64,000 bases of DNA. It comes from an uncultured virus (IMG/VR IMGVR_UViG_3300036766_001722). Its lineage: Duplodnaviria > Heunggongvirae > Uroviricota > Caudoviricetes. The stretch lies in IMG/VR virus record IMGVR_UViG_3300036766_001722. The stretch is one strand, 5' to 3'. Of the stretch, positions 6,752-63,460 are shown piece after piece. The translations under genes were made by a program, and so were the position numbers. The first letter of the stretch is position 1; each line of letters starts with the position of its first letter. The notes below the pieces were generated by a model. The model was given only the letters and a program-made list of their open reading frames with translations, was not told the origin of the DNA and ran no database searches.

Positions 6752-7093
6752 ATGGCAGCCTCAAAGGTCAAAGTACATCGCGTGTACGCACTGGTGCTCC
6801 CGGACGAGGATCCCGATCCGTCGTACCTCGACCAGGAAAGATTTGAGGAGCGACGCGAGGCGTACGAACGCGGCGACTTCCACTTCGTCGGCGTACGTGC
6901 CGTGGCAGACATCGAAGTGGGCGGCGTGAACCAAGAGATCGCCAGCGGCGGCCTCTGGGGCATCGAGTCCGACTCCGGTGACGACTACTTCGCGACCGTG
7001 GCCAAGGACGAGTACGACCAGCTCGTCGACATCCTCGGCGACCTCGGCGTCAAGCACGTGCCGTCGCTGGATAAGAAAGTCCGCCACACGTGA
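6752..7093 (+). CDS. hypothetical acidic protein
   Basis: TAGCAT-N7-ATG start; GTGA overlap with next gene. Confidence 0.6.
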   Translation: MAASKVKVHRVYALVLPDEDPDPSYLDQERFEERREAYERGDFHFVGVRAVADIEVGGVNQEIASGGLWGIESDSGDDYFATVAKDEYDQLVDILGDLGVKHVPSLDKKVRHT

Positions 7094-7377
7094 GCTACCA
7101 CGGCCTCGGTCAACCGGCGCCCACGATCGCGCCAAGCGCGACGATCGCCCCGGCAGCGTCGCACGACGTCGCGACATCGCCGGTCGACATCCTCGCGAAG
7201 CGCCGCGGCTTCGTCGCAGTACCCACGATGGACCTGCGCGACTACGTGCAGGCGCAGGTCGTGACGATGGGCATCGGCTTCATCGTCGGCGTGACCATCG
7301 GCGCAGCGATCGGCAACATCGTGAAGGGCAAGGCCGCGATCACTGCGAACGCGCGGCGCAAGAGGCAGCGCTACTAG
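7090..7377 (+). CDS. small membrane protein, MSY-GLG / TM-NR family
   Basis: MSYHGLGQ...TM...ITANARRKRQRY. Confidence 0.75.
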   Translation: MSYHGLGQPAPTIAPSATIAPAASHDVATSPVDILAKRRGFVAVPTMDLRDYVQAQVVTMGIGFIVGVTIGAAIGNIVKGKAAITANARRKRQRY

Positions 7378-7410
7378 CCTCACGCCACGTCTTCCTGTAC
7401 GCTCCCCAGC

Positions 7411-8724
7411 ATGTCCTACAAGCACAGTGGCCTCGGTCAGGGCAAGTACATTCCCGGCCAAGTCAACTTCCTCATGGCCGGCCGCGGCGGCCGTGAGCCT
7501 GGCTGGCAGCGTCGTTACGAGAGCTACGGCCGCTACTACGGCCTGCTCGGCGACGGCCTCGGCAAGGGCGGCGGTGGAGGCGGCGGCCATCACGGCGGTG
7601 GTGGCCAGCATGGTGGCGGTCACGGTGGCCACCACGGCGGTCACGGTGGGCATGGTGGTCACGGCGGCCGTGGTCGCGGTCGCGGCGGCTGGGGCGGCCA
7701 GTGGGGATGGGGCGGCGGCCCGTGGTGGGGCGGCGACTACTACGACGGCGACTACTACCCGACGGCCACCGTGCCGTACCAGGTGGTCTGCGGCTCGATG
7801 GTCCAGCCGGTCTCCGGCTTCCAGGAAGCCATCCAGGTCGCTCGCGCGATGGGCTCGCCTCCGACGAACCCCTGCCGCATCATGACGCCGGACGGCGCGC
7901 TCGTGGCCACCGTGAGCACCGCGGGCGTCAAGTACGCCCCGAGCGTCGCGGGCCTCGGCGCTGCACCGAGCCCGGGCGGCATCCGCAACCTCGCGCGCGT
8001 CATCTTCCAAGTGATCCCGTCTGGCGGCTCGACCATCCCCATCCTGACGCACGGCATCCGCAGCGCGATCCGCTACGGCAAGTCGCTCGCTCGCTCGGGC
8101 CCGGTGCAGCTCGTCGCCATGAAGGACAGCAGCGGCCGCATGCTCACGCCCCCCGTCGTCGTCGCCACCGTCGATGCCGGTGCTCGCGTCAGCTACGCCC
8201 CGCTCGCCGGTCTCGGCGAGTACTTCGACCAGCCGGTCGCGGGCCTCGGCGTGATGCCGTCCTTCTCAGTGAAGAACCTGAACCGAGTGATCTTCACAGT
8301 CACAGGCGCCGGGATCCCCGCCATCACCCGCGGCATCGCGAGCGCGGTCCGTTACGGCAAGGCTATGTCGCGCAACGGCGTGGCGACGATCGCGGCCGTG
8401 AAGGACGCGAGCGGGCGCACGCTGTCGCCGCCGGTGACGATTGCGGTCGTCACGAGCGGCCGGGTCGCCTACAGCAGCCTGAGCGGCCTCGGGGACAGCA
8501 CGCTCACCGACTACGCGTGCAACGCGACGGCGGCCGTTCAGGACTGGAGGACGCGCCTGAACGATGCGCTGTCCTCGGGCGGCCAGGCCGCGCTGATCGG
8601 CGGCGGCGTCGCCGGTCTCCTCGGCGCGCTGATCGGCCGCCCCATCATCGGCGCTGCGCTCGGCGCCGGAGCTGGCTGGGCGGCACACGCCGTCTGGACG
8701 GCGCCGCTCGCCTCGACAACGTAG
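7411..8724 (+). CDS. GLG-punctuated repeat membrane protein with Gly/His-rich tract
   Basis: MSYKHSGLGQ; repeated domains ending VAGLG/LAGLG/LSGLG; C-terminal Gly-rich TM segments. Confidence 0.8.
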   Translation: MSYKHSGLGQGKYIPGQVNFLMAGRGGREPGWQRRYESYGRYYGLLGDGLGKGGGGGGGHHGGGGQHGGGHGGHHGGHGGHGGHGGRGRGRGGWGGQWGWGGGPWWGGDYYDGDYYPTATVPYQVVCGSMVQPVSGFQEAIQVARAMGSPPTNPCRIMTPDGALVATVSTAGVKYAPSVAGLGAAPSPGGIRNLARVIFQVIPSGGSTIPILTHGIRSAIRYGKSLARSGPVQLVAMKDSSGRMLTPPVVVATVDAGARVSYAPLAGLGEYFDQPVAGLGVMPSFSVKNLNRVIFTVTGAGIPAITRGIASAVRYGKAMSRNGVATIAAVKDASGRTLSPPVTIAVVTSGRVAYSSLSGLGDSTLTDYACNATAAVQDWRTRLNDALSSGGQAALIGGGVAGLLGALIGRPIIGAALGAGAGWAAHAVWTAPLASTT

Positions 8725-8998
8725 AGCTAAGGTACCGTGGGCTTCACGTCTGAGCGCGTCCGCGCCGACCTCGAAGAGGCCGGTGTGCAGGTTTCCGCCG
8801 AAGAGCGCGACGACAAGGAACACGAGACACGGTTCTACGCGTCACACGGCGAGTATCGCGTGATGATCGCCGTGTCCGACGATGGCTACCTCGCGCTCGC
8901 GTTCGAGGGCGGTCGCAGATCGGTGATTCGGTCGATCGAGACCTACGCCAAGCGCGTCGCCCACTTCCTCGCGACGGGCGAAGAGACGTAGCCTCTGC

Positions 8999-14958: not shown

Positions 14959-14967
14959 CGATGCCTC

Positions 14968-17793: not shown

Positions 17794-17955
17794 GGTCGTC
17801 CGCTTGGGCAGTCTCCCATGCGCATCGAGACGCGCGCGGGGCACCAACGGCTGCGGCTGGTTCCGTTCGGTACCGGAGCACCGATCACGGTCGACGTAGA
17901 GGTTCCACGGAACGACTCGACGACCGTCAGCGTTCCCGTTGCGCAGGGAAACTAG
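17794..17955 (+). pseudogene. 5'-truncated PEGA-like domain fragment
   Basis: GRPLGQSPMRIETRAGHQRLRLVPFGTGAPITVDVEV...VSVPV stop. Confidence 0.45.
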
Positions 17956-18416
17956 CGCCGAGAGTGACGTCGCGAACGCGGCTTGTTCGCCGTCGTCGGC
18001 AGTGGCTTCCCGTACCCTTCGGCGAGGGCCACGACAGGCGTGATGACGGGTGCGACTCCTCCCAGCACACCCCAGCCGACGGCCGCGGCCACGGAGCCGT
18101 TGTGTCGCTTGTAGCCATGGATGGCACTCGCGACGATCGACAGGCCCCACAGAGCCACGATAGCGCCCGTCTTAGAGAACACGTACTCGTTTACGTACTG
18201 GCTCACGTACTGGTTCCGGGTGGGCTGAGCGGCGTCCTGTGCCCGCACAGCAGCACCGGTCCACGCGTCTACCTGGGCGTTGGTAGGATTCCAATGTTCC
18301 GGCACGCATTGGTTGGCGCCGATGACTGGCGTCCAGCTCGCGTCTGGACGAATCATCCCAGAAGGACACGGTGTTCCGGCTGGTACCGTCGTCTGGCCAA
18401 GTCCGGTGTAGCTCAT
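17952..18416 (-). CDS. membrane protein, MSY-GLG / TM-NR family
   Basis: MSYTGLGQ...2 TM...TANKPRSRRHSRR; TACGAT-N6-ATG. Confidence 0.8.
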   Translation of the reverse strand: MSYTGLGQTTVPAGTPCPSGMIRPDASWTPVIGANQCVPEHWNPTNAQVDAWTGAAVRAQDAAQPTRNQYVSQYVNEYVFSKTGAIVALWGLSIVASAIHGYKRHNGSVAAAVGWGVLGGVAPVITPVVALAEGYGKPLPTTANKPRSRRHSRR

Positions 18417-19922: not shown

Positions 19923-20153
19923 TCAGTGACCGATGTAGCGGTCGGCGTACTTCTTGACGCCGTAGGCGACCGTCAGGAGCGCGAGCGCGCCACCGGCGAG
20001 CTTGAGTGTCTCGCCCACGGTGGTCGCGCTGACCTTCACCGTGCCGGGCACGGAGAATGTGATTGCGGGATCGTCTCCAAGAAAGCGACGGCTGGGATCG
20101 CCGGCAGGGCCGGACTGCGAACGAAGGAAACGAGGATCGACGTGGTACGACAT
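19923..20153 (-). CDS. small membrane protein, MSY family
   Basis: MSYH...RRFLGD...TM...KK. Confidence 0.6.
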   Translation of the reverse strand: MSYHVDPRFLRSQSGPAGDPSRRFLGDDPAITFSVPGTVKVSATTVGETLKLAGGALALLTVAYGVKKYADRYIGH

Positions 20154-27038: not shown

Positions 27039-27413
27039 TCATCGGCGCGTGTAGGCGGCGAGCGACCGGAGAACCTCCGGGTCCACGTCGCCGCGACGCT
27101 CGAGCCGGCTGTGCAGCATCGACGCCAGCTCACTCGTCGAGAGCTGCTGGCGGACCGGGTTCCGCGAGACGGGCTGGAAACGCTTCACCAGCTCGCTCAC
27201 GATCCACAGGAGCACCAGCGCCACGACGAGCCCGATGACGACCTTTGCGGCAGGGCTCAGGCCGGTGGATAGCGTCGTCGGCGTCTGACCGAACGGCGCC
27301 ATCGAGACGACCGGCGGAGGCGGCAGCGCGAACACATACGCGCCGTCGTCACCGAGCGGGTTGGCGATCAGGTTCGCGCTACGCGCATCCGTCCGATGAT
27401 AGTTGCCGGCCAT
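27039..27413 (-). CDS. membrane protein related to GLG / TM-N family
   Basis: PLGD, PFGQ, TM, VSRNP. Confidence 0.6.
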   Translation of the reverse strand: MAGNYHRTDARSANLIANPLGDDGAYVFALPPPPVVSMAPFGQTPTTLSTGLSPAAKVVIGLVVALVLLWIVSELVKRFQPVSRNPVRQQLSTSELASMLHSRLERRGDVDPEVLRSLAAYTRR

Positions 27414-28648
27414 GGTGTGCCTCTCAGAGGTCGAACTTCGTGGGCGTATCGATCACCGGCACGTCGCGCCCGGTGCTCATGTCGATGTTCACGCGACGCA
27501 CGCGCGACATGTCCGGCACGGCGACCCCGGCCGTGACGCGTACGCCCCAGGAGTGGCAGTAGTCGCAGAGCCACGGCTCGGCGGAAGAGACGACGGGGAC
27601 CTTCATCTCCTCGCTCACGCGACGGCCACGCGTAAGAACGTGCTCAGAGAATCGCTGACGCAGGAACTTCGGCGCCTGGCGATACGGCACGTACTGAACC
27701 GTCATCTCCTTGTTGTCCTCGCGTACGATGAACGTCTCACCGCAGAGAGGGCACATGCCGTGGAGCATCCCCACGCCTTCCGAGGCGTCGGAGTGGCGAG
27801 CCTGCACGTACAGCTCGCACTCGATGATGTGCTGCTCCTCGCCCTTGTTGTTGACGCACGAGATCCACGTCTTCGGCGCCATGTCCTCGGCGTTGAACGA
27901 GTGACGCGTCAGCCGTCCGACCTGACCGGTGCGCTGCCACATCGCGCGACCGACGTTGATCTGCTCGTGCGACATCTTGACGAGATCGCGTTTCGAAACC
28001 TGCCCCGTAACCGTGCTCAAGCTGCATTCTCCTGCGCGCCCCGCGCGCTCATCAGCAGTGCCAGTGCACTGTCGAAAGCTTCGACGATCGCCTGGTCCAC
28101 GATGACCGACGCGTTGTAGCCCACGTTGAAGCCGCGAGCGGTAGCGCCGTCGCCTTCGCCATGGGCCATCCCTTCGATCACCGACACCATCCCCGCGCCG
28201 AGCATTCTTTGCGCGACGCCCGTGATCTCACTCTTCGCGTTCTGTAGCGCACGCCTGTTTCGCTCCATCGCGAGGCCGCAGCAGACTACGCGCCTCTGCG
28301 CATCAGCAAGTCCGTGCCACGTGGCGGCGTTTTCCCCGTCGAGGACGGAGCACGCCGCCTCACCTGCGGCGACGATCGCGTTGTTCACGGCCTCGTTCAG
28401 AGCCACCCCGGCGCTAATCGCCGTCATGAGCGGCTCAGTCGATGCCATGGCCTCGTTGACGGCGGCGTCGCCGTGGCGAACGCGCGCGCCAGACAGCTCG
28501 GCCTCCATGAACATCCTCATCGCCGACGCGCTGCCCGCGGCATGCGCCCCGTCGACGGCCACGTCAGCGAGCATGTCGGCCACGACGACGTCGATCGCCA
28601 TCGACACGACCCGCTTGACCGGCTCGTCGAACTGGACCCAGTCCTGCA

Positions 28649-29077
28649 TCAGCGACGGCTCCGACGACGGCGGCGCGGGTTCTTGCTCATCCCGCCGAAG
28701 ATGACGAGGCCCGTGATGAGCGCCGCGGTGAGCCCGAGGCCAGCGACGATGCCACCGGCACCGCCCGGCGCATCGTCGAGCCCGGCGATCGTGACCGGCA
28801 CGTTGTGCGCCACATGAGAGAGGCACGCGCCCTTGTTCGCCACGCCCTGGCACGCCGCGGCGCGGCGCTTCCAGTAGGCCTTGAAGGAGGGGCTACCCGG
28901 GGGGAGGAACGTAGTCCCGAGGCCGCTGATCGTCACGGGCACGTGGCGCGCGACCTGCGCGAGGCACGTCCCCTCGTCCGCCATGTTGATGCACTGCCGC
29001 GCCTTGGCGTCCCAGAACGCCTTGTAGCCTGGGCTCCCAGGCGGAGCGAAGACGGTTCCGATTCCTGCGTAGCTCAT
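28649..29077 (-). CDS. two-repeat membrane protein, MSY-GLG / TM-NR family
   Basis: MSYAGIG-repeat-ISGLG-repeat-IAGLD-TM-KNPRRRRRSRR. Confidence 0.8.
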   Translation of the reverse strand: MSYAGIGTVFAPPGSPGYKAFWDAKARQCINMADEGTCLAQVARHVPVTISGLGTTFLPPGSPSFKAYWKRRAAACQGVANKGACLSHVAHNVPVTIAGLDDAPGGAGGIVAGLGLTAALITGLVIFGGMSKNPRRRRRSRR

Positions 29078-29367
29078 CAGTGGCTCCTGCGGCGAGAACG
29101 ACGGCGGTTGGCGCTCACGGCCTTCGGCCTGCGCAGTAGCCAGCCGAGCGCGAGACCGGCGACGCCTGCGGCGGCGACCTGGTACTTCAAGCTCGTCAGC
29201 GCCTCCGCGGTGGAGATCGTGGGCGCCGGGCGACCGTCCTTCGCGATCGAGAAGAGGAAGAGCGGATCGCCGCCGCTACTCGTGTCGGGCCACGCGCCCC
29301 ACGAGAGGATCACCCGCTTGATCGGGTTGCTCTCGATCATCGCCGTCGAGCCGAGCGCGTAGCTCAT
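29077..29367 (-). CDS. membrane protein, MSY / TM-NR family
   Basis: MSYALGS...TM...VSANRRRSRRRSH. Confidence 0.75.
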   Translation of the reverse strand: MSYALGSTAMIESNPIKRVILSWGAWPDTSSGGDPLFLFSIAKDGRPAPTISTAEALTSLKYQVAAAGVAGLALGWLLRRPKAVSANRRRSRRRSH

Positions 29368-48466: not shown

Positions 48467-48467
48467 A

Positions 48468-49926: not shown

Positions 49927-49932
49927 AGACAG

Positions 49933-50006
49933 TGGGCGATGCGGGACTCGGACCCGCCTCTTCGAGATCATCAGTCTCGACGTCTTCCCAGGAAGACCTC
50001 TCGCCC
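49933..50006 (-). ncRNA. tRNA-like element, 6-bp anticodon stem, loop CTGATGA
   Basis: GGGCGA/TCGCCC acceptor, GCGGGTCCGAGTCCCGC. Confidence 0.65.
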
Positions 50007-52379: not shown

Positions 52380-52802
52380 ATGAGCTACACGACGCGCCAG
52401 GCAAGAGCCATGTCATCACGGCGTCCTGCTCTCGGCCAAGAACTAGACGCCGCGACGTCAAGCGCCATCGTCTCTGCAGCGCAAGCGAATGCGATCACGG
52501 GCGCCACCCCGACGCAGGCGAACGCACAGGTCACGGCAGCGAACGCAGCTCGCCAGGCTGCGATGATTCGTCCCATTGCTATTGGCGCTGGCGCGCTCGC
52601 TCTTTTCATCGGCGGCTCGTGGGCACTCAATCTGGTCGCAAAACGTGCAGCGGGCATCGACGGATCTGTGTGGAGTGCCACCGGCAAGCAACAACTGATC
52701 TACACCGGACTTTCGCTCGGAGTCGTTTTCCCCGTCGCGCTCGCCATGAAAGCGTCCGGTGTTGACACCGCGATCTTGAACGCGACGAGGTCGCAGACCT
52801 GA
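52380..52802 (+). CDS. membrane protein, MSY-LGQ family
   Basis: MSYTT...PALGQ, 2 TM; TAGGCT-N6-ATG. Confidence 0.7.
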   Translation: MSYTTRQARAMSSRRPALGQELDAATSSAIVSAAQANAITGATPTQANAQVTAANAARQAAMIRPIAIGAGALALFIGGSWALNLVAKRAAGIDGSVWSATGKQQLIYTGLSLGVVFPVALAMKASGVDTAILNATRSQT

Positions 52803-52834: not shown

Positions 52835-53668
52835 ATGAGCTACACGGCCGTCTGCCCGCCAGGGCGCTTCCGCCTGATCGTGGACGGCGTCGACGGCGGA
52901 TGCCGTGTCGGAATCGCTCCGTGCCGTCCGCCAGCGGACTGTTCTGGACGGGCCGTCATCAGTCTGCGTACGGGCCTCGGCACGGCCCCCGTGTCCGCGC
53001 CGACGATGAACGACCAGGCCGATCAGGCGCTCGCCGATCAGGTCGGCATCACGGTCCCGTTTCTGCGCGCCGTACGCAAGATCGAATCAGGCGGCAGCCC
53101 GACTTCGCTCCGCTTCGAGCCGAACAAGTTCCGCGATGCGACGCGGCACCGATTCGACTCGCAGATTCCCTACACACCGAGCAGCGGCACCGGGGGGCCC
53201 TCCCACGTTCCGTCCGAGACCAACAAGGCAGCGTTTCAGCGAGCCTACGCCCTCGATCCGGCCAGTGCCGTCGCCGCCGCGTCGTGGGGACTGTACCAAG
53301 AAATGGGCAGCACTCTGCTCGGCCTCTTCGGAGGAGATCCGGCCACCGCCATCGCCGGGTTTTACGCCGACCCGGCAGGCGTGAGCGACAGGCTGCTGCT
53401 CGCATGGATGAGAGCGCGCCCGGCCGCGCTGGCCGCTGCCCGAGCGCTCGACTTCGCGACCTTCGCCCACCTCTACAACGGCGCCCCGCTACCGAACGCC
53501 ACGCCCTACAGCACGCGGCTTCGCGCCGCCTACGACTCTGCGCTCACGACATGGACCGGCATCTCTCCCGGAATCCAGTGGGTGCCGATCGCCATCGGCG
53601 CCACCGCGGTCGCCGCCAGCGCCGGGTTCGCGTTCTGGGCGTGGCGCCGGTCACGCCGCAAGAAATAA
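52835..53668 (+). CDS. membrane-anchored N-acetylmuramidase (DUF3380-like) with MSY-GLG leader
   Basis: LRAVRKIESGG, RFEP..F, ASWGLYQ.MG, FAHLYNG, Y..RL..AY; LRTGLG; TM + RRSRRKK. Confidence 0.8.
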   Translation: MSYTAVCPPGRFRLIVDGVDGGCRVGIAPCRPPADCSGRAVISLRTGLGTAPVSAPTMNDQADQALADQVGITVPFLRAVRKIESGGSPTSLRFEPNKFRDATRHRFDSQIPYTPSSGTGGPSHVPSETNKAAFQRAYALDPASAVAAASWGLYQEMGSTLLGLFGGDPATAIAGFYADPAGVSDRLLLAWMRARPAALAAARALDFATFAHLYNGAPLPNATPYSTRLRAAYDSALTTWTGISPGIQWVPIAIGATAVAASAGFAFWAWRRSRRKK

Positions 53669-55562: not shown

Positions 55563-56192
55563 CTACTTAGCCCACGCCCTGACAATCATCGTGAGGCCGG
55601 CGAGGCCGACGACCACACCAGCCGCGATCCCCACGGCCGTCCAGTCAGTCTTGCCAGGGGAGAGGCCCTTCTTCCGCCGCGTCCATTCGGCGTAGACATT
55701 GTTCGCCCACGACTGACCGAGCCCACTCGACGCCACGAAGTGCACGCAGTCAGGCGTCCGTCCGGCACAGTTCGGCGCCGTGTACGACCGGCTGTCGATG
55801 TACCGCGACCCGAACACCTGCCTGAACATCGGTGCCGTCGCGTTCACACGTGCCGTGAGATTCGCGCTCGCGTAGGAAGGCGCTCCGATGAACCACGTCT
55901 CGGGTCCGACGTCACGTAGCGCCGTGGCAGCGGGTGCCGTGCGATCGGCCCGGTAGATGTCGTTCGTGCCGAGGATGTAGAAGACGTAGTCCGGAGGCGG
56001 GGAGCCGTGCACGATCCCGAGCACCTGGTTCCACGGGTAGCCATCGTTCGCCGCGTTGCCGACCCACCGGTCTGCGGTCCAGCCCACGTTCCCGAGGAGA
56101 TCGACCTGCGCGCCCTGCGCTTCGAAGAGCTGCTTGAGCCGTTGCCCCATGGGGCCCGCGGCTTGGCTGTCGCCTACGATCAGGACGCGCAC
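55563..56192 (-). CDS. SGNH/GDSL hydrolase with C-terminal TM anchor
   Basis: VLIVGDS, LGTND, DCVH; C-terminal TM. Confidence 0.85.
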   Translation of the reverse strand: MRVLIVGDSQAAGPMGQRLKQLFEAQGAQVDLLGNVGWTADRWVGNAANDGYPWNQVLGIVHGSPPPDYVFYILGTNDIYRADRTAPAATALRDVGPETWFIGAPSYASANLTARVNATAPMFRQVFGSRYIDSRSYTAPNCAGRTPDCVHFVASSGLGQSWANNVYAEWTRRKKGLSPGKTDWTAVGIAAGVVVGLAGLTMIVRAWAK

Positions 56193-56626
56193 CGAGCGCG
56201 CTTCCTGTTCTTCGCCACCGGCCTCTTCTTCAGCAGGGCGACCGTCATCAGCGCCACGATCCCGATGCCAGCCGCTGCGGCGACCGGAATCGCCCAGCCC
56301 GGCAGCGCCGAACTCGGAGCCGTCGCGTCCGGCGTGATGAAGGACGGCACGGTGCTGAACGCCGGATCTTCGGCGGGGCCTGTGCCGCCGCCCGTTCGCG
56401 CATCCGCACCCCTCACCAGGCCGCCGATCAGCGCGCCACCGGCGCTGATCAGGCCGGTCATGAGCGCTCCCGATCCCGAACCCGCGCTCGTGCCGCCCGA
56501 AGTCGACGACGGCTTCGCACCGCCCGTGTAGCCCTGGTCCTTGCGCAACGACGAGATCATCGACTGGAACGCAGCATCGTCCGCCGCGTCTCCAAGCACG
56601 CGCGCATGGTGACCGTGATAGCTCAC
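56180..56626 (-). CDS. membrane protein, MSY / TM-NR family
   Basis: (M)SYHGHHARVLGD...TM...VAKNRKRAR. Confidence 0.75.
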   Translation of the reverse strand: MSYHGHHARVLGDAADDAAFQSMISSLRKDQGYTGGAKPSSTSGGTSAGSGSGALMTGLISAGGALIGGLVRGADARTGGGTGPAEDPAFSTVPSFITPDATAPSSALPGWAIPVAAAAGIGIVALMTVALLKKRPVAKNRKRARCAS

Positions 56627-56633
56627 GACGATC

Positions 56634-58469
56634 TCACACGTGCGGGTGCGAGTGACGGCGAGGCGCCGCGCGACGGCGGCGAGCGCGGGCACGGTTCGAG
56701 GTGACCTTCTTCTCCGGCTTGAAGAGGAACCACCCGAGCCCAGCCACGCCAGCGACTCCGACACCGACCCAGACCCACGGCACCTGCGATGGGGCGGACA
56801 CCGACGGCCCAGTAGGCGCCGGGATCACGAAGCCACCATCGGGCGTCGTCCCGGGGACCGTTCCATCGGGCGTCGTCGCGCCCGGAGGCGGCTGCGCACC
56901 CGGAGGCGGCGCGCTCGCGACGATCGCGTTCTTGGCGGTCGTCGCCGCGTTCGTGATGTCGGTCACAGCCTGCGTCGCCACGGACTGCAATGCGTCGATC
57001 GACGGCACGTTCGTCGTGGCGGTCAGCCCCGGCGGCAGCGGGTTGTGCAGGTCTAGGTCTAGGTCTAGGCCGAGACCGCCCAGCATGCGCTGGATCCACG
57101 ACTTGCGACGCGGGCGGTACCCGCTCAGTCCGGCGAAGCCGCTGAGCGCCGTGCTCTGCGCCGACGTCGCGAGCTGCGACGCGAGAGTTCGCGCGATGCC
57201 CGCGTTGTTCATGAGCGCTGCGTACGCAGGAGTCGCGGCGCCCTTGATCGCCATCAGCACCTGGCACTTCACGGCGTTCTTCGCGATCTCGAACCGCGCA
57301 CTGTCCATCGCAGCCTGCACGCTCGGCGTGATCGCCATCCCGAGGATGGAATCGGCGGTGAACTGCGTCGCTGCCGACGCCGCCGCGCGCCCAAGCTGCG
57401 TGGCGACGTCGGTCGCCGTCGTGATCGCAGTCGACCACGCCGGGATGCTTGCCGTCAGCGCGGCGATCTGCTGCTGCGCCGCCGCCGCTGCTGCGTCCAC
57501 CGACGCCTGGTCGGTGGCGGCCGACATGGTCTGCTTCGCGGCGGACACGATGCCCGGAATCGATTGCGCAGCGCGCACCGCTGCGGTTCTCGCCGCGGTA
57601 ACGGTCGACAGTGCTGCCTGCCCTTGCGTGACGAGACGCGCGAGGTTGGCGGCGGCCTGCTGGATCGCCGCAGCGGGAGCGCCGACGTTCGGCGTCATCG
57701 TCATCGAGAGCGCAGCGGAGAGGCTCGCGAAGCTACCCTCGACCATCAGCACGGACCGCAGGATCTGCGCATTCGCGCGTGGCCAGTTGTCCGCGAACGC
57801 CGTCCAGTCCGGCACCGCCGGAAGTGCGGACGCCGAGAACGGCGCCACTGCCGGAAGCCCCACGCCGAGGCTGACCGGAAGCGCCCCACCCGTACCCAGC
57901 GGCCCCGAGGCTACCGCTGCCATCGCTGCCGTTCGGATTGCATTCGCGACGGCCGACGCGGGAGCCGAGCCGTTCTTCACGAACATGAGGGCCCACGCCA
58001 CGCCCTTGCTGGCCGACGGGTTGTTCTCCGGACGCGGGATGAATCCAGCGAGCGCCACGCTCTGCGCTGCCTGCATTCGCTGGACCCACGTCTTCATCGG
58101 TCCGACGTCAACGGAAGCGCCTCCGACCATCGGGACGGGCATGCCTCCGTACGAGTACCCTCCGCCGCTGGCTGACGACTGCGGCGGCTGGGCCGGCACG
58201 ATCACGGCCGCTCTCGGCTGCCACGTCACGAGCGGCCACACGTACGCAAGCACCATCCCCTCATCCAGGGTGCTCGGAGGCGCCGCGTACATCACCGGCG
58301 GCTGACAGTCACGCGGAACAAGGGCGTCAAGCGCCGAGACGCCGACCAGCGACGCGACGTCACCGCCGCCGCTGCTACCGCCGCCGCCGCCGGTCACCCC
58401 TGCCCTCATGGCAATGTCGCGTCCCGTGAAGACCATCGGGCCTTGGCCCATGCCGTGGTGGTAACTCAT
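56634..58469 (-). CDS. large Ala-rich membrane protein, MSY / TM-NR family
   Basis: MSYHHGMGQ; LGGLG; TM; VTSNRARARRRR; TAGGAT-N6-ATG. Confidence 0.8.
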   Translation of the reverse strand: MSYHHGMGQGPMVFTGRDIAMRAGVTGGGGGSSGGGDVASLVGVSALDALVPRDCQPPVMYAAPPSTLDEGMVLAYVWPLVTWQPRAAVIVPAQPPQSSASGGGYSYGGMPVPMVGGASVDVGPMKTWVQRMQAAQSVALAGFIPRPENNPSASKGVAWALMFVKNGSAPASAVANAIRTAAMAAVASGPLGTGGALPVSLGVGLPAVAPFSASALPAVPDWTAFADNWPRANAQILRSVLMVEGSFASLSAALSMTMTPNVGAPAAAIQQAAANLARLVTQGQAALSTVTAARTAAVRAAQSIPGIVSAAKQTMSAATDQASVDAAAAAAQQQIAALTASIPAWSTAITTATDVATQLGRAAASAATQFTADSILGMAITPSVQAAMDSARFEIAKNAVKCQVLMAIKGAATPAYAALMNNAGIARTLASQLATSAQSTALSGFAGLSGYRPRRKSWIQRMLGGLGLDLDLDLHNPLPPGLTATTNVPSIDALQSVATQAVTDITNAATTAKNAIVASAPPPGAQPPPGATTPDGTVPGTTPDGGFVIPAPTGPSVSAPSQVPWVWVGVGVAGVAGLGWFLFKPEKKVTSNRARARRRRAAPRRHSHPHV

Positions 58470-58483
58470 GACGTGATCCTATC

Positions 58484-58759
58484 CTATCGGCGACGGTTCG
58501 TCACTACCGAGCCGGCCTTGCGCCGCATCTTGCGGACGACGAAGAACGCGCCCACGCCGAGACCGACGAGAGCCACTCCTCCTGCGGCGTACGCCATCCA
58601 GTGCGAGCCTCCCGACACCAGAGCCGGACTCTGCGTCGATGCCGGAGGCGTCGACAGCACCGGCATCAAAGTCGGCGCGTCGTACGTCTGCCGGAAGGTC
58701 GCCACCGGAAGAAGCGCTTCCGAGGTAAGCTGTCCCACTCCACCGTCGTGATAGCTCAT
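58484..58759 (-). CDS. membrane protein, MSY / TM-NR family
   Basis: MSYHDGGVGQ...TM...VVTNRRR. Confidence 0.75.
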   Translation of the reverse strand: MSYHDGGVGQLTSEALLPVATFRQTYDAPTLMPVLSTPPASTQSPALVSGGSHWMAYAAGGVALVGLGVGAFFVVRKMRRKAGSVVTNRRR

Positions 58760-59487
58760 CTCGTTCTCCTTGTGCGGCGGCGGCGGTTTGCCTTCACGGC
58801 AGGCGCTGCTGCCGTCGTGGCACGATGCCCGCCCTTCAAGATCAGCGCGGCGACGAGCAGCGACAGCACTCCGCCGCCCGCTGCGAACACGACGATCTTG
58901 TTCTTTGCGAACCAGCTCGCGCTCTTCGCGCCGAGCGCGTACGCCTTGGCCGCTTCGTAGTCGACCGTCAACTGCGCGAGCTTCGGAACGCCGTTCGCAT
59001 CGGGGGTCATGTCGATCCGCCCCGGCGGCGTCGCGAGCTGTTGCATCGCGCACGTGACGCAGTCCTGGCGCTGGCTGTCGTCGAGCGCGCCGGTGTCGAT
59101 CAACTGGTTACACGCAACCTTTGCCTGAACGTTCCCGACGAGCGCGTCGCCAGACAGCACCTGCGCTGACTCGGTACAGAACCTCTGCGCCACCAGATCG
59201 GACGGGAATAGCTGGGCGCACGCCACCTGACTCGCCGCTCCTGCGGCAGCCGCCTGCTGAACCGCAGCCTGCTGTGCCTGCGCGGTCGGCGACGCTGACT
59301 GACGCAGCGACGTAAACCGCGCGGCTCCTGCCTGCTGGATTGCCTTCTGAGCGATCGCGGTGATGATCTGCACCGACGGCGCGCCGCTGCCGGGCAACCC
59401 GCCCGAGATCGTGCTCGACGGCGTTCCGGTAGAGGTGCTCTCCGTAACCGCGTCGCCAAGCGCGTGGCCCCGACGGTAGTAACTCAC
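58756..59487 (-). CDS. membrane protein, MSY / TM-NR family
   Basis: (M)SYYRRGHALGD...TM...VKANRRRRTRRTR. Confidence 0.8.
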   Translation of the reverse strand: MSYYRRGHALGDAVTESTSTGTPSSTISGGLPGSGAPSVQIITAIAQKAIQQAGAARFTSLRQSASPTAQAQQAAVQQAAAAGAASQVACAQLFPSDLVAQRFCTESAQVLSGDALVGNVQAKVACNQLIDTGALDDSQRQDCVTCAMQQLATPPGRIDMTPDANGVPKLAQLTVDYEAAKAYALGAKSASWFAKNKIVVFAAGGGVLSLLVAALILKGGHRATTAAAPAVKANRRRRTRRTR

Positions 59488-61334
59488 GCAGACCTCTTCT
59501 CGCGGCGACGACGAACGATAGCAGCACCGAGGCCTGCCAGCGACACACCGCCGATCGTCCATAGCGCGAGCTTCCACGTCTTCGTCCGGCCGTTCATGCC
59601 GTTGCCGTTCATGCCGTCTGTGTACGCGCTACTGATCCTCGAGATCGTTCCAGCCCTGCTCTTCGCCGTAAACTTGATCTGCTGGAAGTAGGCCGTGATG
59701 TCCGCAATCGTAGCGAGCCGCAGTTCGGCACCGTTGCAGTGGTCGAGCACGCGGTACCACAGCGGCGGCGGCGCCCACGCCTGAGCGTGGATGAGGCCCG
59801 AGAAGATCTGAATGAGCGCCCCGATGCCCGCGATCACGCCACCGATCACAGTGCCCACCCCAGGGATTAGCGCGACGGCCGCGCCCACGCCCTCCGTGAC
59901 CTGCGCTGCCATCACGACGCCCGACTGCGCTCCTGCGTCTGCGGCGGCAGCAAGCTGGTCCGCACTCGCCCCCGCGACGGCAACGTTCTCCGGCAGGCGG
60001 AGGAACGCCGCGTACTGCGTCAGCGCGGTTGCCTGGAGCCGCATGAACTCCGTATCCGCCATCTCCTGCATCCGCGCACGAATGCCGGCACACATCATTG
60101 CACCCGTCGCAGCGGTTCCCGTCTGCCAGTAGGTGCTTCCCAGCATGCTCGCGACTCCCGCAAGCGGATTGGTCGGGTTCGAAAAGAGCGACTGGTAGAA
60201 GATCGCGACAGGTTCGCTGGTGTTTCCCAGTTCGGTGCCAGCATCGCGCAGGCCAACGTAGACGTTGACCGGATCCGTGCTCGTCTGGCTCCACAGCCAG
60301 TCATGATCGTCATCAGAGCGCGATCCGTTCGCGAACGCGTTCATTGCGGTGTCATCAGCCGGCAGCCCGAGACCCGCACGCGCCGCCTTGAACGCGGCGT
60401 ACATCACGTCCTGCCAGTGCCAGGTGATGTCACCCGAGTTCATGCACGCAGCAGGATTGATCTTCGGGTTCGACGGCGTGACGCGTTGACCAGTGAGGTT
60501 GCCGCGGTTCTTGCTAAACGGCGTGCGCGTGCCGCAATTGTAGATGACGGACGACGGGTCCTGGTTGTGCTCACGCAGCCACGAGTCGATCTTCGTCTCG
60601 TACTTCGGGAGAGCGAAGGTCGCCCAGATGGGCATGCCGAAGTACTGCTCGTCGGGTCCCGCCATCGGCCACGCGAGGTTCGGGTTCTCGTAGCCGTCTG
60701 GCACGTTGAAGTCCGACGTGAAGCCGAAGAAATCCCACGGCGTGCCTCTCACCGTCGTCGTCGCGAACCCCAACGTCTGCAACGTCGAGATCGACCGGAA
60801 GAGATTCTGTCCGTCCGACTTCTCAGGGAAAGGCGCCACGTTCGTGGGCTGCATGTGCAAGAGGCGCCACTCGGCCATCGACGAGCGGAAGGTGCCGCCA
60901 CGGATGCTGGTCGAGCGACACCAGATCTCCATCCACGCCTGGGCGGCGTCGTACCAGATCTTCTGCTCGAAGCCCTGCGGGCTATACGCGAGGAGCCGCT
61001 TGAGCGCTGCGCGAGCCGTCTCGTAGAGATCGACGAGAAAGATCTTCTTGAAGACGTCCCCGCACGTCCCCGCCATCTCCATCTGGGACATGATGAGGAG
61101 GTCGGCGTTCGGGTAGATGATCGTGCCACTCGTCTCGTAGTTGTTCAGCGCGTTCAACTCGGCCAGCGGGTAGCGCAGAACCTGCTGAGCGATCGCGATG
61201 TTGTAGCCCGGTGGCAGCGACGGAGCCTGCGTAGCGCCAACCACCGCGCCGCCACGCGAGACAACGGAAACCGCGCCGGGGGCCTGTCCAAGGCCGCGGC
61301 TACGACGAGCGAGACTATTGGCGTGGTAGGCCAC
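59484..61334 (-). CDS. large membrane protein, GLGQ family
   Basis: MAYH...RGLGQ; hydrophobic hairpin IPGVG; TM + RRRREKR. Confidence 0.8.
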   Translation of the reverse strand: MAYHANSLARRSRGLGQAPGAVSVVSRGGAVVGATQAPSLPPGYNIAIAQQVLRYPLAELNALNNYETSGTIIYPNADLLIMSQMEMAGTCGDVFKKIFLVDLYETARAALKRLLAYSPQGFEQKIWYDAAQAWMEIWCRSTSIRGGTFRSSMAEWRLLHMQPTNVAPFPEKSDGQNLFRSISTLQTLGFATTTVRGTPWDFFGFTSDFNVPDGYENPNLAWPMAGPDEQYFGMPIWATFALPKYETKIDSWLREHNQDPSSVIYNCGTRTPFSKNRGNLTGQRVTPSNPKINPAACMNSGDITWHWQDVMYAAFKAARAGLGLPADDTAMNAFANGSRSDDDHDWLWSQTSTDPVNVYVGLRDAGTELGNTSEPVAIFYQSLFSNPTNPLAGVASMLGSTYWQTGTAATGAMMCAGIRARMQEMADTEFMRLQATALTQYAAFLRLPENVAVAGASADQLAAAADAGAQSGVVMAAQVTEGVGAAVALIPGVGTVIGGVIAGIGALIQIFSGLIHAQAWAPPPLWYRVLDHCNGAELRLATIADITAYFQQIKFTAKSRAGTISRISSAYTDGMNGNGMNGRTKTWKLALWTIGGVSLAGLGAAIVRRRREKRSA

Positions 61335-61343
61335 TCTTGATCG

Positions 61344-61832
61344 TCAGGCGTAGTACCAGTAGCGGTTGCGACGGAGTCCGCGGGAGCGACGACGGTTCAC
61401 CGTCGTCTTCTTCGGGCTCACGAACCAGAAGATGCCAGCCGCGAGGACCGCGACGGCGGCCCAGCCAGCGACGGCGGTCGAGCGATCTGCCGTCTGCCCG
61501 AGACCATCGACCGAGACGAACGTACGCCGCCGCGACGACGACGGCGCGTGATGAGAATCTCTACGCCACGGCTGCGTGATGTCGCTCCACGACGGTTCGT
61601 AGAGCATGGGTGCGAACAGCCGGCGTTCTTCCGGCGTCGAGGCGGCGATCACTCTGACCGCGCCACGATGCCCGGCCGGCGCAGCTCTCACGACCACAGC
61701 GCCACGCGAACCGCTCTCTGGTACGCGTGCGACCGGCGCGGCCTTGCCGCCCGACTTTCTGCTGGACGGCTTGCCGCGCGGCGCAGACAGCTTCACGGCA
61801 CCACTCGAACGGTAGACAGGCTTGGGCGGCAT
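61344..61832 (-). CDS. membrane protein, GLG / TM-NR family
   Basis: VDGLGQ-TM-TTVNRRRSRGLRRN. Confidence 0.75.
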   Translation of the reverse strand: MPPKPVYRSSGAVKLSAPRGKPSSRKSGGKAAPVARVPESGSRGAVVVRAAPAGHRGAVRVIAASTPEERRLFAPMLYEPSWSDITQPWRRDSHHAPSSSRRRTFVSVDGLGQTADRSTAVAGWAAVAVLAAGIFWFVSPKKTTVNRRRSRGLRRNRYWYYA

Positions 61833-61834
61833 GT

Positions 61835-62689
61835 TCAGTCTCCCCGGTTTTTGCTCAGCTTGGCGAGCGAGTCAGCCCAGTGTCGCGCCTGGAACAGGAT
61901 CCACCTCTCCGGCTGCTCAGACAGCACGTGAGCTGCGATGTGTAGGGTACGCGTGTGCGGGTCGCCGTGGATGGCGTACTTCGACTCGGGCACTATCTTG
62001 ACCTTGATGCCGAGGCCTTCTGCGTCGATCGCATCTTGGAGACGCTGTCTCGCCTCGCCCTCGCTCAGCTCCCACAGTCGTTTCACCGAGGGCGCATTTC
62101 TCCGTACGCGGCCGTTGACCGCGACAGAAGCGCTCGGGCGCTTGTGCTTCGCTCTCCGCTGCTTCTCGCGCTCGAGCTTCGCGGCATCGCCCTTCATCAA
62201 GGTGTGCCGCCTCGCCAAGAGACTGGCGAGGTAGTCATCGGAGAGCGTGCGCACCGGCGGGATGTGATGTCCGACCTTGCGCAGTCGATGCTGGTGCCGC
62301 AGCTTCTTCTTGTTCGCCCACACGACTTTCTCCGGGTTCACCGTGAACCAGAAGAGGCCGATCGCGATCACCGCGACGGCGCCCCAGCCGATCTTCAAGC
62401 CGGTCGAGAGTCCCGAGTCCTGTACCGGCGGCGGGCTCAGCGACGCATCGGTCGTCGGTGGCGGCGTCTGGCCGAGCTGACCCGGCAGGCGAGCCGGGAA
62501 GTTCGCACGCGGGAAGCCAGCTCCCGCGGTCTGGTAACGCATCGGGCGAGACCCGGTCGCCGTCGCGCCGAGGCCCGACATCGCGGCCTGCGTCACGTGC
62601 GAGAGCACGGCACGGTGATGATCCTGCCGCGCACCCGCGTAGGGATCGGTCACGCGCGAAGACGTTCCGGGTTTGTTGTGATAGGTCAT
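61835..62689 (-). CDS. membrane protein, GLG / TM-N family, with C-terminal modules
   Basis: MTYH, MSGLG, QLGQ, TM, WANKKK, VRRN. Confidence 0.75.
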   Translation of the reverse strand: MTYHNKPGTSSRVTDPYAGARQDHHRAVLSHVTQAAMSGLGATATGSRPMRYQTAGAGFPRANFPARLPGQLGQTPPPTTDASLSPPPVQDSGLSTGLKIGWGAVAVIAIGLFWFTVNPEKVVWANKKKLRHQHRLRKVGHHIPPVRTLSDDYLASLLARRHTLMKGDAAKLEREKQRRAKHKRPSASVAVNGRVRRNAPSVKRLWELSEGEARQRLQDAIDAEGLGIKVKIVPESKYAIHGDPHTRTLHIAAHVLSEQPERWILFQARHWADSLAKLSKNRGD

Positions 62690-62692
62690 CGA

Positions 62693-63460
62693 TCACCGCC
62701 TCGCCGAAGTGCTGCCCGCCACAGACTCATACTCGCGACCATTCCACACTTGGAGATTGCTCCGTGAAACAGGCCCATTCGTGCTGCGTTTCGCTTCCCG
62801 CAGTGCGTCGTCGTCGTCGTTTGCACAGATTTCAATCCAGCCGTACGGACCACGATAGCGGTAGCTAACCCAGCCTGCGCTGCACGGGGCACGCAGGTCG
62901 CGGATGAGAATGAAGCGATTCGTTCCGGATGCATCGAGACCGCGCGCCCTCGCAGCATCGTAGATGCGATCGATCTGCGCGGGCGTGTAACCCTCCGCGT
63001 CGATTGTTACCTCTCGTCTCCTAGCTTTCACTTGATCCAGAATTTGATCCAGCCTCGTCTCACGACGACGACGCGTGTTTTTCTCCGCCGTCGCCGCCTT
63101 CCCCATCATCCAGAAGATGGCGATCGTGCCCAGCACGATGGCGACGCCGCCGACCCTCGTGATCGTCTCGGGGCTCGCGCTCGGGATCGTGGTCTGCCCG
63201 ACGCCGCCGCCGTGTCCTGCGAACGTGACGCGACCATCGACGCCCACGGTCGCGACGAGCGGCCACGCTCCCGTCAGCCGATGCCCTCGACCATCATCCT
63301 GCGCCGTGATCTCGACGGGCGGCGGCTTCCGCGCCCGTCGCGCCGCTGCAATCGCCGGACGGATCCCTTTGACGAGCCACGGCGCGAAGAGCAGGATGCC
63401 CCTCTGGCTGAGGCTGAACGTGGCCCTGTTCAGGTCGATGTCGTGGCCGTTGACGATCAT
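62693..63460 (-). CDS. membrane protein, GVGQ / TM-NR family, with C-terminal modules
   Basis: GGVGQ-TM-EKNTRRRR then further domains. Confidence 0.7.
   Translation of the reverse strand: MIVNGHDIDLNRATFSLSQRGILLFAPWLVKGIRPAIAAARRARKPPPVEITAQDDGRGHRLTGAWPLVATVGVDGRVTFAGHGGGVGQTTIPSASPETITRVGGVAIVLGTIAIFWMMGKAATAEKNTRRRRETRLDQILDQVKARRREVTIDAEGYTPAQIDRIYDAARARGLDASGTNRFILIRDLRAPCSAGWVSYRYRGPYGWIEICANDDDDALREAKRSTNGPVSRSNLQVWNGREYESVAGSTSARR

Follow-up and report, generated by a model that had tools for sequence, protein, structure and literature searches.

Unrelated membrane proteins of a large uncultured virus-like element share a two-part end signature, an MSY..GLGQ-type front tag and an Asn-Arg tail behind the helix

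Short end-tags on unrelated proteins are a way in which cells and viruses address proteins to one place. In the LPXTG, PEP-CTERM, MYXO-CTERM, GlyGly-CTERM and PGF-CTERM systems, the signature motif is located before the membrane helix, on the outer side, and the substrates carry an N-terminal Sec signal. In the present study, a 64,000-nucleotide stretch of DNA from an uncultured virus (IMG/VR record IMGVR_UViG_3300036766_001722), referred to below as the window, was analysed, and about twenty of its membrane proteins, with otherwise unrelated bodies, were found to share a front tag of the MSY..GLGQ type and an Asn-basic tail that follows the helix. The signals of sortases, exosortases, rhombosortases and archaeosortases likewise combine a helix and a basic C-terminal cluster on many unrelated bodies per genome, but here the conserved V-S-A-N-R-R-R motif lies after the helix, on the positive side, and the N-terminus is not Sec-like. 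Every new tag of this kind has so far pointed the way to a machine not known before (sortases, exosortases, prohead proteases). The present pair is unusual in that a conserved C-terminal motif on the predicted cytoplasmic side is paired with a non-hydrophobic N-terminal tag, and in that the tags mark a large, widespread, uncultured element without recognisable standard virion genes.

Several viral systems are also comparable. The adenovirus protease and the core proteases of poxviruses and asfarviruses cut at Gly-containing motifs, and a Gly-X-Gly-type motif is likewise present on many structural proteins; poxviruses also have a membrane protein from which both termini are trimmed. The coat proteins of the filamentous phages Pf3 and M13 (g8p) are oriented N-out/C-in, and their basic C-terminal tail touches the DNA in the particle; these coats are similarly small, with the N-terminus out, the C-terminus in and a basic tail, but they represent one species of 44–50 amino acids (aa) of a single-stranded DNA phage, whereas the window encodes about 20 species, the longest of 616 aa, in which the Asn is invariant and the N-terminus is tagged. 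Phages PRD1 and PM2 likewise possess a set of small virion membrane proteins encoded by adjacent genes, and we know of no shared end-tags in either of them; their 10–15-kb genomes provide a double-jelly-roll capsid and a packaging ATPase, whereas no FtsK-type match was obtained at E <= 1 in the complete relative described below. In record NC_000867, the PM2 protein P5, annotated as an endolysin, is described as structural and is assigned a putative transmembrane domain. In the giant phage SPN3US, the N-terminal propeptides share a common cleavage motif, and T4 propeptides direct proteins into the prohead (PMC10052503). The substrates of these two phages (those of gp245 in SPN3US) are likewise many different proteins with a short N-terminal element and a common motif; they are, however, soluble head proteins cut by a recognisable prohead protease, whereas the carriers described here are membrane proteins with another motif, and no protease was found in the scans described below.

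The signature was evaluated in a curated set of 103 window genes, which were called with our own codon model and then curated; both the gene calls and the hydropathy measures were obtained with simple scripts of our own. Fifteen of the 103 proteins start with M[SAT]Y against 0.64 expected (P = 2e-16), and 13 start with MSY against 0.16 expected. The G[LIVMF]GQ motif is present in 10 proteins, and in 13 a membrane helix is followed, within about 25 residues, by Asn with at least three Arg or Lys among the next five residues. At least one of these three features was found in 20 genes, at least two in 14 and all three in 4. The M[SAT]Y start and the tail coincide in nine genes (Fisher 1e-6), G[LIVMF]GQ and the tail coincide in seven (Fisher 9e-6), and a hydrophobic helix is present in all 15 M[SAT]Y proteins compared to 34 of 103 overall. 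The preliminary description of this DNA, made from the letters alone, left open whether the motif was more frequent than in shuffled proteins: G[LIVMF]GQ occurs 10 times in the 4,663 aa of the 21 candidates and is absent from the 13,290 aa of the 82 other proteins, and when the candidates were shuffled 2000 times, the motif appeared 0.5 times on average and never more than 5 times. Because the candidate set was picked partly on this motif, the co-occurrence tests weigh more. A six-frame scan of the window for a helix followed by N-basic gave 11 matches, all 11 in the coding frames of tagged genes, and in an all-against-all BLASTP comparison of the tagged proteins, similarity was confined to the N-terminal tag and the helix-tail module. 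The shared two-part signature is far above chance, and the earlier claim of about 20 membrane proteins with unrelated bodies, a common front tag and an Asn-basic tail is well founded, since the three features both exceed chance and co-occur. Some of its details had to be amended. The positions listed there do translate to tags, but most of them are minus-strand starts, and 32693 belongs to a plus-strand gene; the statement that most members start with MSY, MAY or MTY holds for 15 proteins but not for those at 27413, 30110, 33226, 61832 and 63460, in which other features are present.

Thirteen aligned modules form one homologous unit, in which a (V/M)-(S/T)-(Y/I/F) beta-strand-like piece is followed by G-h-G-Q, a Pro/Thr/Ala-rich linker, the helix (often ending G-x-F-W-F), a Lys spacer and the tail. 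The consensus of the tail is (V/T)-(S/T/A)-(A/S)-Asn-Arg-Arg-Arg, with Asn invariant in 13 of 13 modules and Arg nearly so. The overall frame of a tagged protein can be written as MSY, then [G/S]-[L/M/V/F]-G-Q about 5–20 residues on, a linker or body, the helix, and [V/L/M]-[S/T/A]-[A/S/P]-Asn with 3–10 Arg/Lys. Most of the proteins are single-pass, and a few are two- or three-pass; the shortest members (91–96 aa) consist of the frame alone, without a body. Two layouts were distinguished. In the first, the protein begins with the tag, and between 0 and about 550 residues of body are inserted ahead of the helix (7090, 58484, 56634, 59484 and others). The spacing between GLGQ and the helix ranges from about 7 to more than 500 residues. 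In the second, a domain comes first and the tag lies just outside the helix (61344, 62693, 33226). The bodies inserted before the helix include a muramidase, Cys-pair repeats and a globular body of about 440 aa. Three proteins (29364, 61835, 62693) carry an extra domain beyond the tail, and that at 29364 closes with a second copy of the tail, as proteins extended in this way often do. In the proteins at 7411–8724 and 28649–29077, the tag recurs at each boundary of the internal repeats; in the former, each repeat is bounded by (V/K)(S/A)Y..GLG, with three internal copies, and a TACGCT hexamer precedes the ATG by 8 nt. A plus-strand open reading frame at 56163–56531, reported by the first gene caller, overlaps the tagged gene at 56180–56626 and is probably spurious.

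Selection acts on the tag peptide and not on its codons, since the Ser of MSY is encoded by AGC or AGT in some genes and by TCC or TCG in others, and since orthologues keep both ends. The 243-aa protein (58756–59487) and its relatives P0006 and P0007 are 77–78% identical; 16 of its 17 first and 39 of its 43 last residues are retained in them, against about 80% identity overall. Both relatives begin MSYYRR.HALGD with ATG at the place where the window gene has GTG, which backs this start codon, one of four GTG starts among the tagged genes (7090, 56626, 59487 and 61334). The Asn-Arg cores are written with varied CGN codons. Two other origins of the ends were considered and rejected. The Arg tail is not a by-product of Shine-Dalgarno sites, because AGGAG, which there serves the next gene, is confined to the final codons of a few genes and the Asn-Arg core is written in CGN codons. 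Nor does MSY reflect a start context at the RNA level, given the different Ser codons used.

The signature recurs beyond the window. A profile built on the 13 modules was used to search 1.84 billion representative proteins (E <= 1e-3) and matched 55 proteins, four of which were the window's own; some of the 51 others, namely the very long multi-stretch matches, are probably false. Among these 51 proteins, 23 start with M[ST][YFW], and G-h-G is found before residue 46 in 25; the strict tail motif is present in 35, and 4 have two or more copies of the tail. Proteins matched via the helix and tail alone (P0019, P0027, P0061, P0022, P0055) still begin with MSY or MTY, so the N-terminal tag constitutes independent evidence. 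The invariant core in the relatives is L-G-Q, the first Gly being often absent (MSYSLGQ, MTYHLGQ), and in P0030, P0034, P0036 and P0047 the tail motifs repeat within long basic extensions and at the very end. The best self-match of the profile was the 611-aa protein at 56634–58469 (P0008). Relatives of the protein at 33226 (P0013, P0020, P0049) retain G-x-GQ and V-S-x-N-R-R-R, and P0011 and P0057 are related to the proteins at 61835–62689 and 62693–63460, respectively; no relative of the 616-aa protein was found in metagenome, viral and genome collections, and its ESM Atlas match (0.85) to an unnamed viral cluster is a lead only. The source was looked up for ten relatives and was a metagenome in all ten. 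A second N-terminal class, GGIF..N(I/L)F.G, is present among the relatives (P0038, P0042).

One complete relative was read. This IMG/VR contig (G001; 159,872 bp, direct terminal repeats, classed as 100% complete, 62.5% G+C) was reached via a protein of the 33226 type; it shares 16 of the 103 window proteins at 28–68% identity (most at 30–50%) with conserved order, and the module profile matched it at 11 places. Its tagged cluster at 48–56 kb includes proteins beginning MSYYLRKGPIGS, MTYGVMGLGLD, MSYKVNRALGF, MTYYATAGLGYG, MSYLSGYGG.. and MSYHGLGQASTT, and other tagged genes are located elsewhere; the start choice in G001 favoured tag-like starts, and only helix-bearing proteins are counted. 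Counterparts of individual window genes were found at 86848–87699 (for 7090; MTYHLGQ, 43% identical), 78715–79089 (for 27039–27413; starting MSYHLPAQ), 77440–78126 (for 29364–30110) and 148102–148713 (for the SGNH/GDSL-like gene at 55563–56192). Tagged genes make up about a tenth of the genes of the element. A further profile search for relatives returned only G001 again and one near-identical 1.2-kb contig, and a literature search on the GLGQ tag and on Arg-rich virion-membrane tails in phages found no description of them. Two other G001 proteins, at 60201–62771 (856 aa) and 62867–63565 (232 aa), both end KGYAGGLFARNLF(A/S)GM, a third shared short motif that resembles GGIF..N(I/L)F.G.

The homology of the modules raises the question of whether any dedicated system is needed. 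The tagged proteins could be paralogues descended from one small membrane protein, with bodies that were inserted or have diverged past recognition and ends that are kept by Met removal before Ser, by a positive-inside anchor and by Asn as a helix cap. Minimal members that are the frame alone (7090, 58484), the alignment of the modules from GLGQ to the tail as one unit, the tandem gene cluster at 56180–63460 and the lack of any tag reader among the proteins found are in line with such an expansion. It leaves unexplained, however, the invariant Asn (13 of 13 modules, strict motif in 35 of 51 relatives), Tyr at position 3, and the reuse of the tail after predicted cytoplasmic domains and on a helix-less protein, and the ends are conserved across elements that are 30–50% identical elsewhere. 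We consider paralogue expansion alone to be a somewhat unlikely explanation.

Topology was assessed in the 57 members whose helix-tail could be detected. Of these, 13 come from the 21 window candidates and 44 from the 46 relatives that remained once five long multi-stretch matches and one copy of a window protein had been set aside. The 15 residues that precede the helix have a mean charge of −0.44 and the 20 that follow it one of +8.05, and the flank after the helix is the more positive in 56 of 57 members. Net charge per 100 aa is 0.02 before the helix versus +37 after, and reaches +90 net in P0030. The pre-helix parts contain 41 cysteines in 6,114 residues and the post-helix parts 9 in 4,309, with an even count in 13 of the 16 proteins having pre-helix cysteines. 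According to the positive-inside rule, a positive flank stays cytoplasmic, and because the positive flank here is the one after the helix, the N-terminus would be out and the tail in. The recognisable body domains are all pre-helix and wall- or periplasm-directed (the muramidase at 52835, PG_binding in two G001 members and P0031, TPR in P0029 and P0044), and no Pfam family was matched by the post-helix domains of 36 relatives. The charge, the cysteines and the peptidoglycan-directed domains together point to an N-terminus and body facing away from the cytoplasm and a cytoplasmic poly-Arg tail. The absence of a Sec signal peptide noted earlier was borne out, as none of 50 members with the helix beyond residue 45 has a signal-like N-terminus by our own simple measure (a hydrophobic 12-mer with a mean hydropathy of at least 2.0), which is not a trained predictor. 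Tat or class III pilin-like signals were not found either, the tags being followed by Pro/Thr/Ala-rich or polar sequence with no hydrophobic stretch.

The reading that we favour, tentatively and short of calling it probable, is that the tagged proteins are membrane proteins of the element's particle, or of the site on the host membrane where it is assembled. According to this scheme, the heads on the outer side would be wall-active, binding and cutting peptidoglycan; the polycationic poly-Arg tails would hold DNA or an acidic partner at the membrane; and the two end-tags would serve as common recognition signals, by which unrelated bodies are inserted in one orientation and recruited together. 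If the tags are indeed incorporation signals, a simple sequence rule would list the structural membrane proteome of the lineage from metagenomes and provide a handle on the reader.

The tags match none of the known sorting signals. When 45 proteins were compared with the NCBIfam sorting-signal models at E 0.01, and 10 members again at the permissive E 10, no model reached its cut-off; the best match was GG_III-CTERM with 15.5 bits versus a cut-off of 22 in 1 of the 10 members, the rest being weaker or without any match, and no sortase-type enzyme was found in general Pfam scans of the window or G001, so the earlier statement that no described sorting family fits was supported. The same description likened GLG to the adenovirus protease motif and proposed an element-encoded processing enzyme, and neither proposal found support. 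Of 37 G[LIVMF]G sites, 11 fit the adenain consensus (M/I/L)XGX-G or (M/I/L)XGG-X, 4 of these 11 being inside hydrophobic helices, and none of the 7 N-terminal sites (first 30 residues) fits. Protease families were not found in the window (Pfam, all 103 proteins at E 0.01 and 53 unknowns at E 0.5), and no processing protease was found in G001 (PHROGs, Pfam; no Peptidase_C48 at E <= 1); peptidases C5, C57 and C48 are absent from the Pfam matches of both, a difference, as far as these scans reach, from adenoviruses, poxviruses and asfarviruses. The sole peptidase match of G001, M23, is of the cell-wall endopeptidase/endolysin type and is not a processing candidate.

Processing may nevertheless be envisaged by analogy with the propeptides of giant-phage head proteins or with adenovirus and poxvirus core proteins, with a protease that would cut at G-L-G/L-G-Q, trim a targeting leader, split domains and perhaps free Arg-rich peptides at the Asn. 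It would agree with the motif at every domain boundary in 7411–8724 and 28649–29077 (MSYAGIG / VTISGLG / VTIAGLD), with its position just outside the helix in the second layout, and with the recurrence of tail motifs in the long basic extensions and at the end of four relatives, and the shared propeptides of SPN3US and prohead targeting in T4 (PMC10052503) offer a precedent. At the same time, besides the poor fit to adenain and the lack of a recognised protease, the position that follows G is variable (Q, D, E, T or A), relatives can do without the first G, and tandem duplication of a motif-plus-domain unit accounts for the internal copies without cleavage. We regard such processing as unlikely. 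A link to Gln-methyltransferases via the gene at 32007–32675 was also considered and rejected, the NPPY-type motif not being seen by eye.

If the outward domains bind and cut the wall, they might also do so in the membrane of the infected cell, in lysis, egress, wall remodelling or superinfection exclusion, with the tags serving for insertion and mutual assembly. The muramidase, SGNH hydrolase and PG-binding bodies, the endolysin-type GH25 gene nearby (16708–17337) and the basic C-terminal tails that are common in holin-like proteins speak for a role of this kind. Against this, about 20 members per genome, some longer than 600 aa, far exceed known lysis cassettes, and extensions with +60 to +90 net charge suggest nucleic-acid binding over lysis timing. 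A function confined to the host membrane therefore seems improbable to us.

The gene content of G001 was searched for particle genes. No capsid, portal, terminase, prohead protease or tail family was found among 214 of its 220 gene calls with PHROGs at 1e-5; PHROGs at 0.05 on 30 more or repeated calls and Pfam on 107 at 1e-3 likewise gave no particle families, which divergence may hide. TerL_ATPase and FtsK_SpoIIIE had no match in G001 at E <= 1, and other ATPases were covered by the general Pfam/PHROG scans only. The genes that were recognised encode helicases, an archaeo-eukaryotic-type primase, exonucleases, thymidylate synthase, ParB proteins, Mu Gam, endonuclease VII and an integrase, along with PcfJ-like, DUF932 and ART-PolyVal domains, an amidase and the M23 peptidase. 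PDB sequence searches with three large G001 proteins gave nothing below E 0.1.

These gaps also bear on the idea that the tagged proteins are packaged in a capsid and ejected to insert into the envelope of the new host, MSY..LGQ being a capsid-targeting sequence and the Arg tail riding on DNA. The presence of a cell-wall hydrolase among the members is compatible with it, as is the analogy with T4 capsid-targeting sequences and giant-phage ejection proteins (PMC10052503, PMC7411985). With capsid, portal, terminase and prohead protease not recognisable in G001, and with strongly hydrophobic helices flanked by +8 that are expected to enter the producer's own membrane, we hold ejection to be very improbable.

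The tagged cluster of G001 lies within a same-strand block at 43–69 kb with genes of high codon bias, and the gene with the top codon bias encodes a 260-aa protein, which we propose as a lineage marker and candidate major structural protein. It has 252 homologue clusters; the 120 matches listed all share 72% identity or more and come from contigs as long as 171 kb, and the contig size of 81,589 nt recorded for one homologue is that recorded for the tagged protein P0030. It had no tblastn match in GenBank phages or plasmids, and its profile was not found in 4 genomes nor in 401 sampled genomes of one phylum. Foldseek (best E 0.067), BFVD (best E 0.039) and VIA (Z <= 5.0) were searched with its predicted structure and gave no significant match; in the last, jelly-roll capsids appear weakly among generic beta-sandwiches. 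In the ESM Atlas, the Pfam-bearing clusters closest to it are P2_N/P2_C of PM2 (0.76), a lead that a comparison of profiles did not bear out (hhalign against PM2 P2, probability 0.5%). Judged from gene content, the lineage appears to consist of widespread uncultured elements of 157–171 kb with no recognisable tailed-phage capsid, portal or terminase, and the element may represent either a virus whose structural genes escape recognition or a transmissible element that lacks a capsid. A mobile element spread in self-encoded membrane vesicles, without a capsid, is described for the Halorubrum plasmid pR1SE (PMC10818511); it is archaeal, the likeness is one of description only, and no such tags are known to us from it.

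Several points weigh against membership of a particle or assembly site, the reading favoured above. No particle protein was identified, and "particle membrane" is taken from context. The hyper-conserved 260-aa protein, the best structural candidate, could be modelled only with mediocre confidence (pLDDT 58.8), and its matches are weak and to non-specific beta-sandwiches. Bodies of up to about 560 aa that cross the membrane without a signal peptide are hard to reconcile with known bacterial insertion routes, and the protein at 61344–61832 and its relative P0017 have basic N-terminal regions (+13 and +9), which conflict with a simple topology. The basic tail is missing from the proteins at 7411, 52380 and 32693 and lacks Asn in those at 52835 and 59484, and a helix-less G001 protein ends LTANRRRR, so the tail is not strictly bound to a membrane anchor. 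No enzyme or receptor for the tags was found in the searches described, and the host was not identified from the TnpB relatives (see below) or from the searches of genomes with the 260-aa profile. A still more specific version of the particle reading, which we consider rather unlikely, would see a lineage of bacterial viruses or vesicle-spread elements of 157–171 kb without HK97 capsid, portal and terminase, in which the DNA is held in a lipid-bounded particle of about 20 N-out/C-in proteins. Condensing and tethering the genome would fall to the poly-Arg tails and to the extensions with a charge of +60 to +90, the outer domains would bind and cut the wall of the next host, and MSY..LGQ and V-S-A-N-R-R-R would be incorporation signals, possibly read by a kinase-like neighbour or trimmed by an unrecognised protease. 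If true, a membrane-bounded particle with no conventional capsid would widen the forms known for large bacterial viruses.

Two neighbouring genes are, by position alone, candidate partners of the tags. The kinase-like gene (5811–6701) is divergent from the 6743/7090/7411 operon; its Pfam match to Pkinase (E 0.024) is below the cut-off, that to Bud32 has E 0.0024, and the protein is 36% identical to that of G001 87768–88649, which is also beside a tagged gene. Its AlphaFold model, from a two-sequence alignment, had a pLDDT of 44.4 and was not used. The zinc-ribbon gene (27424–28020) lies between tagged genes in both elements, and its product, the best-conserved unknown, is 50% identical to that of G001 78143–78715.

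Table 1 Tagged genes of the window, followed by other genes discussed in the text (window positions, unless G001 is indicated)
Feature	Coordinates	Strand	Characteristics
95-aa minimal member, GTG, MSYHGLGQ	7090..7377	plus	Pro/Thr/Ala linker, helix at residues 52-80, tail ITANARRKRQRY; all three features
437-aa member, MSYKHSGLGQ	7411..8724	plus	Gly/His-rich stretch, repeated domains, C-terminal helix, no basic tail
154-aa member, MSYTGLGQ	17952..18416	minus	two helices, tail TTANKPRSRRHSRR
76-aa member, MSYH start	19923..20153	minus	C-terminal helix only
124-aa diverged member, MAGNYH start	27039..27413	minus	central helix, degenerate VSRNPVRQQ, extra C-terminal domain
142-aa member, MSYAGIGT	28649..29077	minus	two Cys-pair repeats bounded by VTI(S/A)GL(G/D), helix, tail MSKNPRRRRRSRR
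96-aa member, MSYALGS	29077..29367	minus	helix, tail VSANRRRSRRRSH
248-aa member	29364..30110	minus	helix, mid-protein VTANRRRMRRN, basic domain, C-terminal second tail LRGNRRRSHRKSHR
163-aa member, MSYARTPRSSLGQT	32693..33184	plus	two helices, no Asn-Arg tail
92-aa member, MYTNVNGMRSARFP	33226..33504	plus	GFGQTP right before helix, tail VAANRRRRR
140-aa member, MSYTT...ALGQ	52380..52802	plus	two helices, no basic tail
277-aa member, MSYTAV	52835..53668	plus	N-acetylmuramidase (PF11860, E 6e-13), C-terminal helix, RRSRRKK without Asn
209-aa SGNH/GDSL-like hydrolase, borderline member	55563..56192	minus	GLGQ at residue 157, C-terminal helix, no MSY or Asn tail
148-aa member, GTG, MSYHGHHARVLGD	56180..56626	minus	helix, tail VAKNRKRARCAS
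611-aa member, MSYHHGMGQ	56634..58469	minus	long Ala/Ser/Thr-rich body, helix, tail VTSNRARARRRR
91-aa minimal member, MSYHDGGVGQ	58484..58759	minus	linker, helix, tail VVTNRRR
243-aa member, GTG, MSYYRRGHALGD	58756..59487	minus	Cys-containing body, helix, tail VKANRRRRTRRTR
616-aa member, GTG, MAYHANSLARRSRGLGQ	59484..61334	minus	globular body, Gly-rich hydrophobic hairpin, last helix, RRRREKRSA without Asn
162-aa member, second layout (P0009)	61344..61832	minus	basic N-terminal region, VSVDGLGQT before helix, tail TTVNRRRSRGLRRNRYWYYA
284-aa member, MTYHNKPG, QLGQTPPP	61835..62689	minus	helix, VWANKKKLRHQ, then 160-aa domain (predicted cytoplasmic side)
255-aa member (P0010)	62693..63460	minus	GGGVGQTT before helix, AEKNTRRRRE after, then 125-aa domain
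Protein-kinase-like gene	5811..6701	minus	GSGSFG loop, VLKLTR, DFHASNM, IADVG in alignment
198-aa Cys4 zinc-ribbon protein	27424..28020	minus	CPxCG...CDYC, no family
260-aa protein, top codon bias	G001 63747-64529 (L016:3747-4526)		no Pfam/PHROG family
GH25 endolysin-type hydrolase gene	16708-17337		near tagged genes
PurZ-like adenylosuccinate synthetase, C-terminal half	8999-9829	minus	profile positions 175-411 of 416, phrog_1211 (2-aminoadenine pathway)
Sugar-modification set	10466-16673 and 24305-26700		glycosyltransferases, two methyltransferases, GNAT acetyltransferase, DegT-type aminotransferase
IS1595-family transposase and two TnpB genes	18491-19504, 30714-31955, 36473-37636
84-aa Cys-rich protein	33925-34179	minus	classical lipoprotein-type signal MRYLIVFLLVLASGC
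Tad2-like (anti-Thoeris) domain	38317-38628	minus	Pfam PF11195, E 6e-9
Peptidase_M20-family gene, cut by window edge	1-831	plus	E 3e-15

The tag carrier is a mobile, virus-like element. Proteins of the window are recorded on a 164,952-nt contig, and the element is at least 165 kb long; the G+C content of the window is about 65% overall (59–70% per 2 kb). Among the sequencing runs listed, its DNA was carried by four, all of them sediment metagenomes, and by no RNA run; the contigs in these runs were short, low-depth and near-identical and yielded no usable variation. The families recognised with Pfam and PHROGs comprise a UvrD-type helicase, a GH25 endolysin-type hydrolase, an N-acetylmuramidase, an SGNH hydrolase, a tyrosine integrase, an HNH nuclease, a Tad2-like protein, a sugar-modification cluster, an IS1595 transposase and two TnpB proteins. 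About two-thirds of the window proteins have no match in either collection, and capsid, portal, terminase and tail families were not found. The end sequence of the window was absent from the viral contigs searched. A blastn search of 56000–63999 against phages gave no match, the helicase is at most 31% identical to any phage protein, and the 322-aa protein at 34617–35585 had no match among known phages. The Peptidase_M20 gene at the window edge may belong either to the element or to the host flank. The N-terminal half of the PurZ-like open reading frame is missing or split. The lipoprotein-type signal on the protein at 33925–34179 indicates that the element also employs ordinary Sec/lipoprotein signals.

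The sugar-modification set could glycosylate the Ser/Thr/Pro-rich linkers of the tagged proteins, a putative role suggested by gene content. One of its genes, the GT4 gene at 25369–26700, lies among the tagged genes and encodes a protein 44% identical to that of G001 80392–81717. The nearest genome copies of the second TnpB are in Rubrobacteraceae metagenome-assembled genomes (44%), Meiothermus (42%) and Streptomyces (34–42%), and these relatives, from Actinomycetota and Deinococcota and at most 44% identical, would be a weak hint to the host. The window has 31 tRNA genes, of which 29 form a minus-strand array at 45025–50006 and 2 more are at 5249–5425; the array is broken by an HNH gene (45549–46070) and small open reading frames, and tRNA-Ile(GAT) is present in three copies. 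A TAnnnT hexamer, often TACGCT, is located 5–9 nt upstream of 14 window start codons without a Shine-Dalgarno sequence (among them 7411, 18416, 32693, 33226, 52380, 52835, 58469, 6701 and 10208), and 8 of these 14 are starts of tagged genes. This arrangement is the one expected of leaderless mRNAs and may likewise be a weak hint to the host; the operon-internal genes carry AGGAG-type sites instead of the hexamer.

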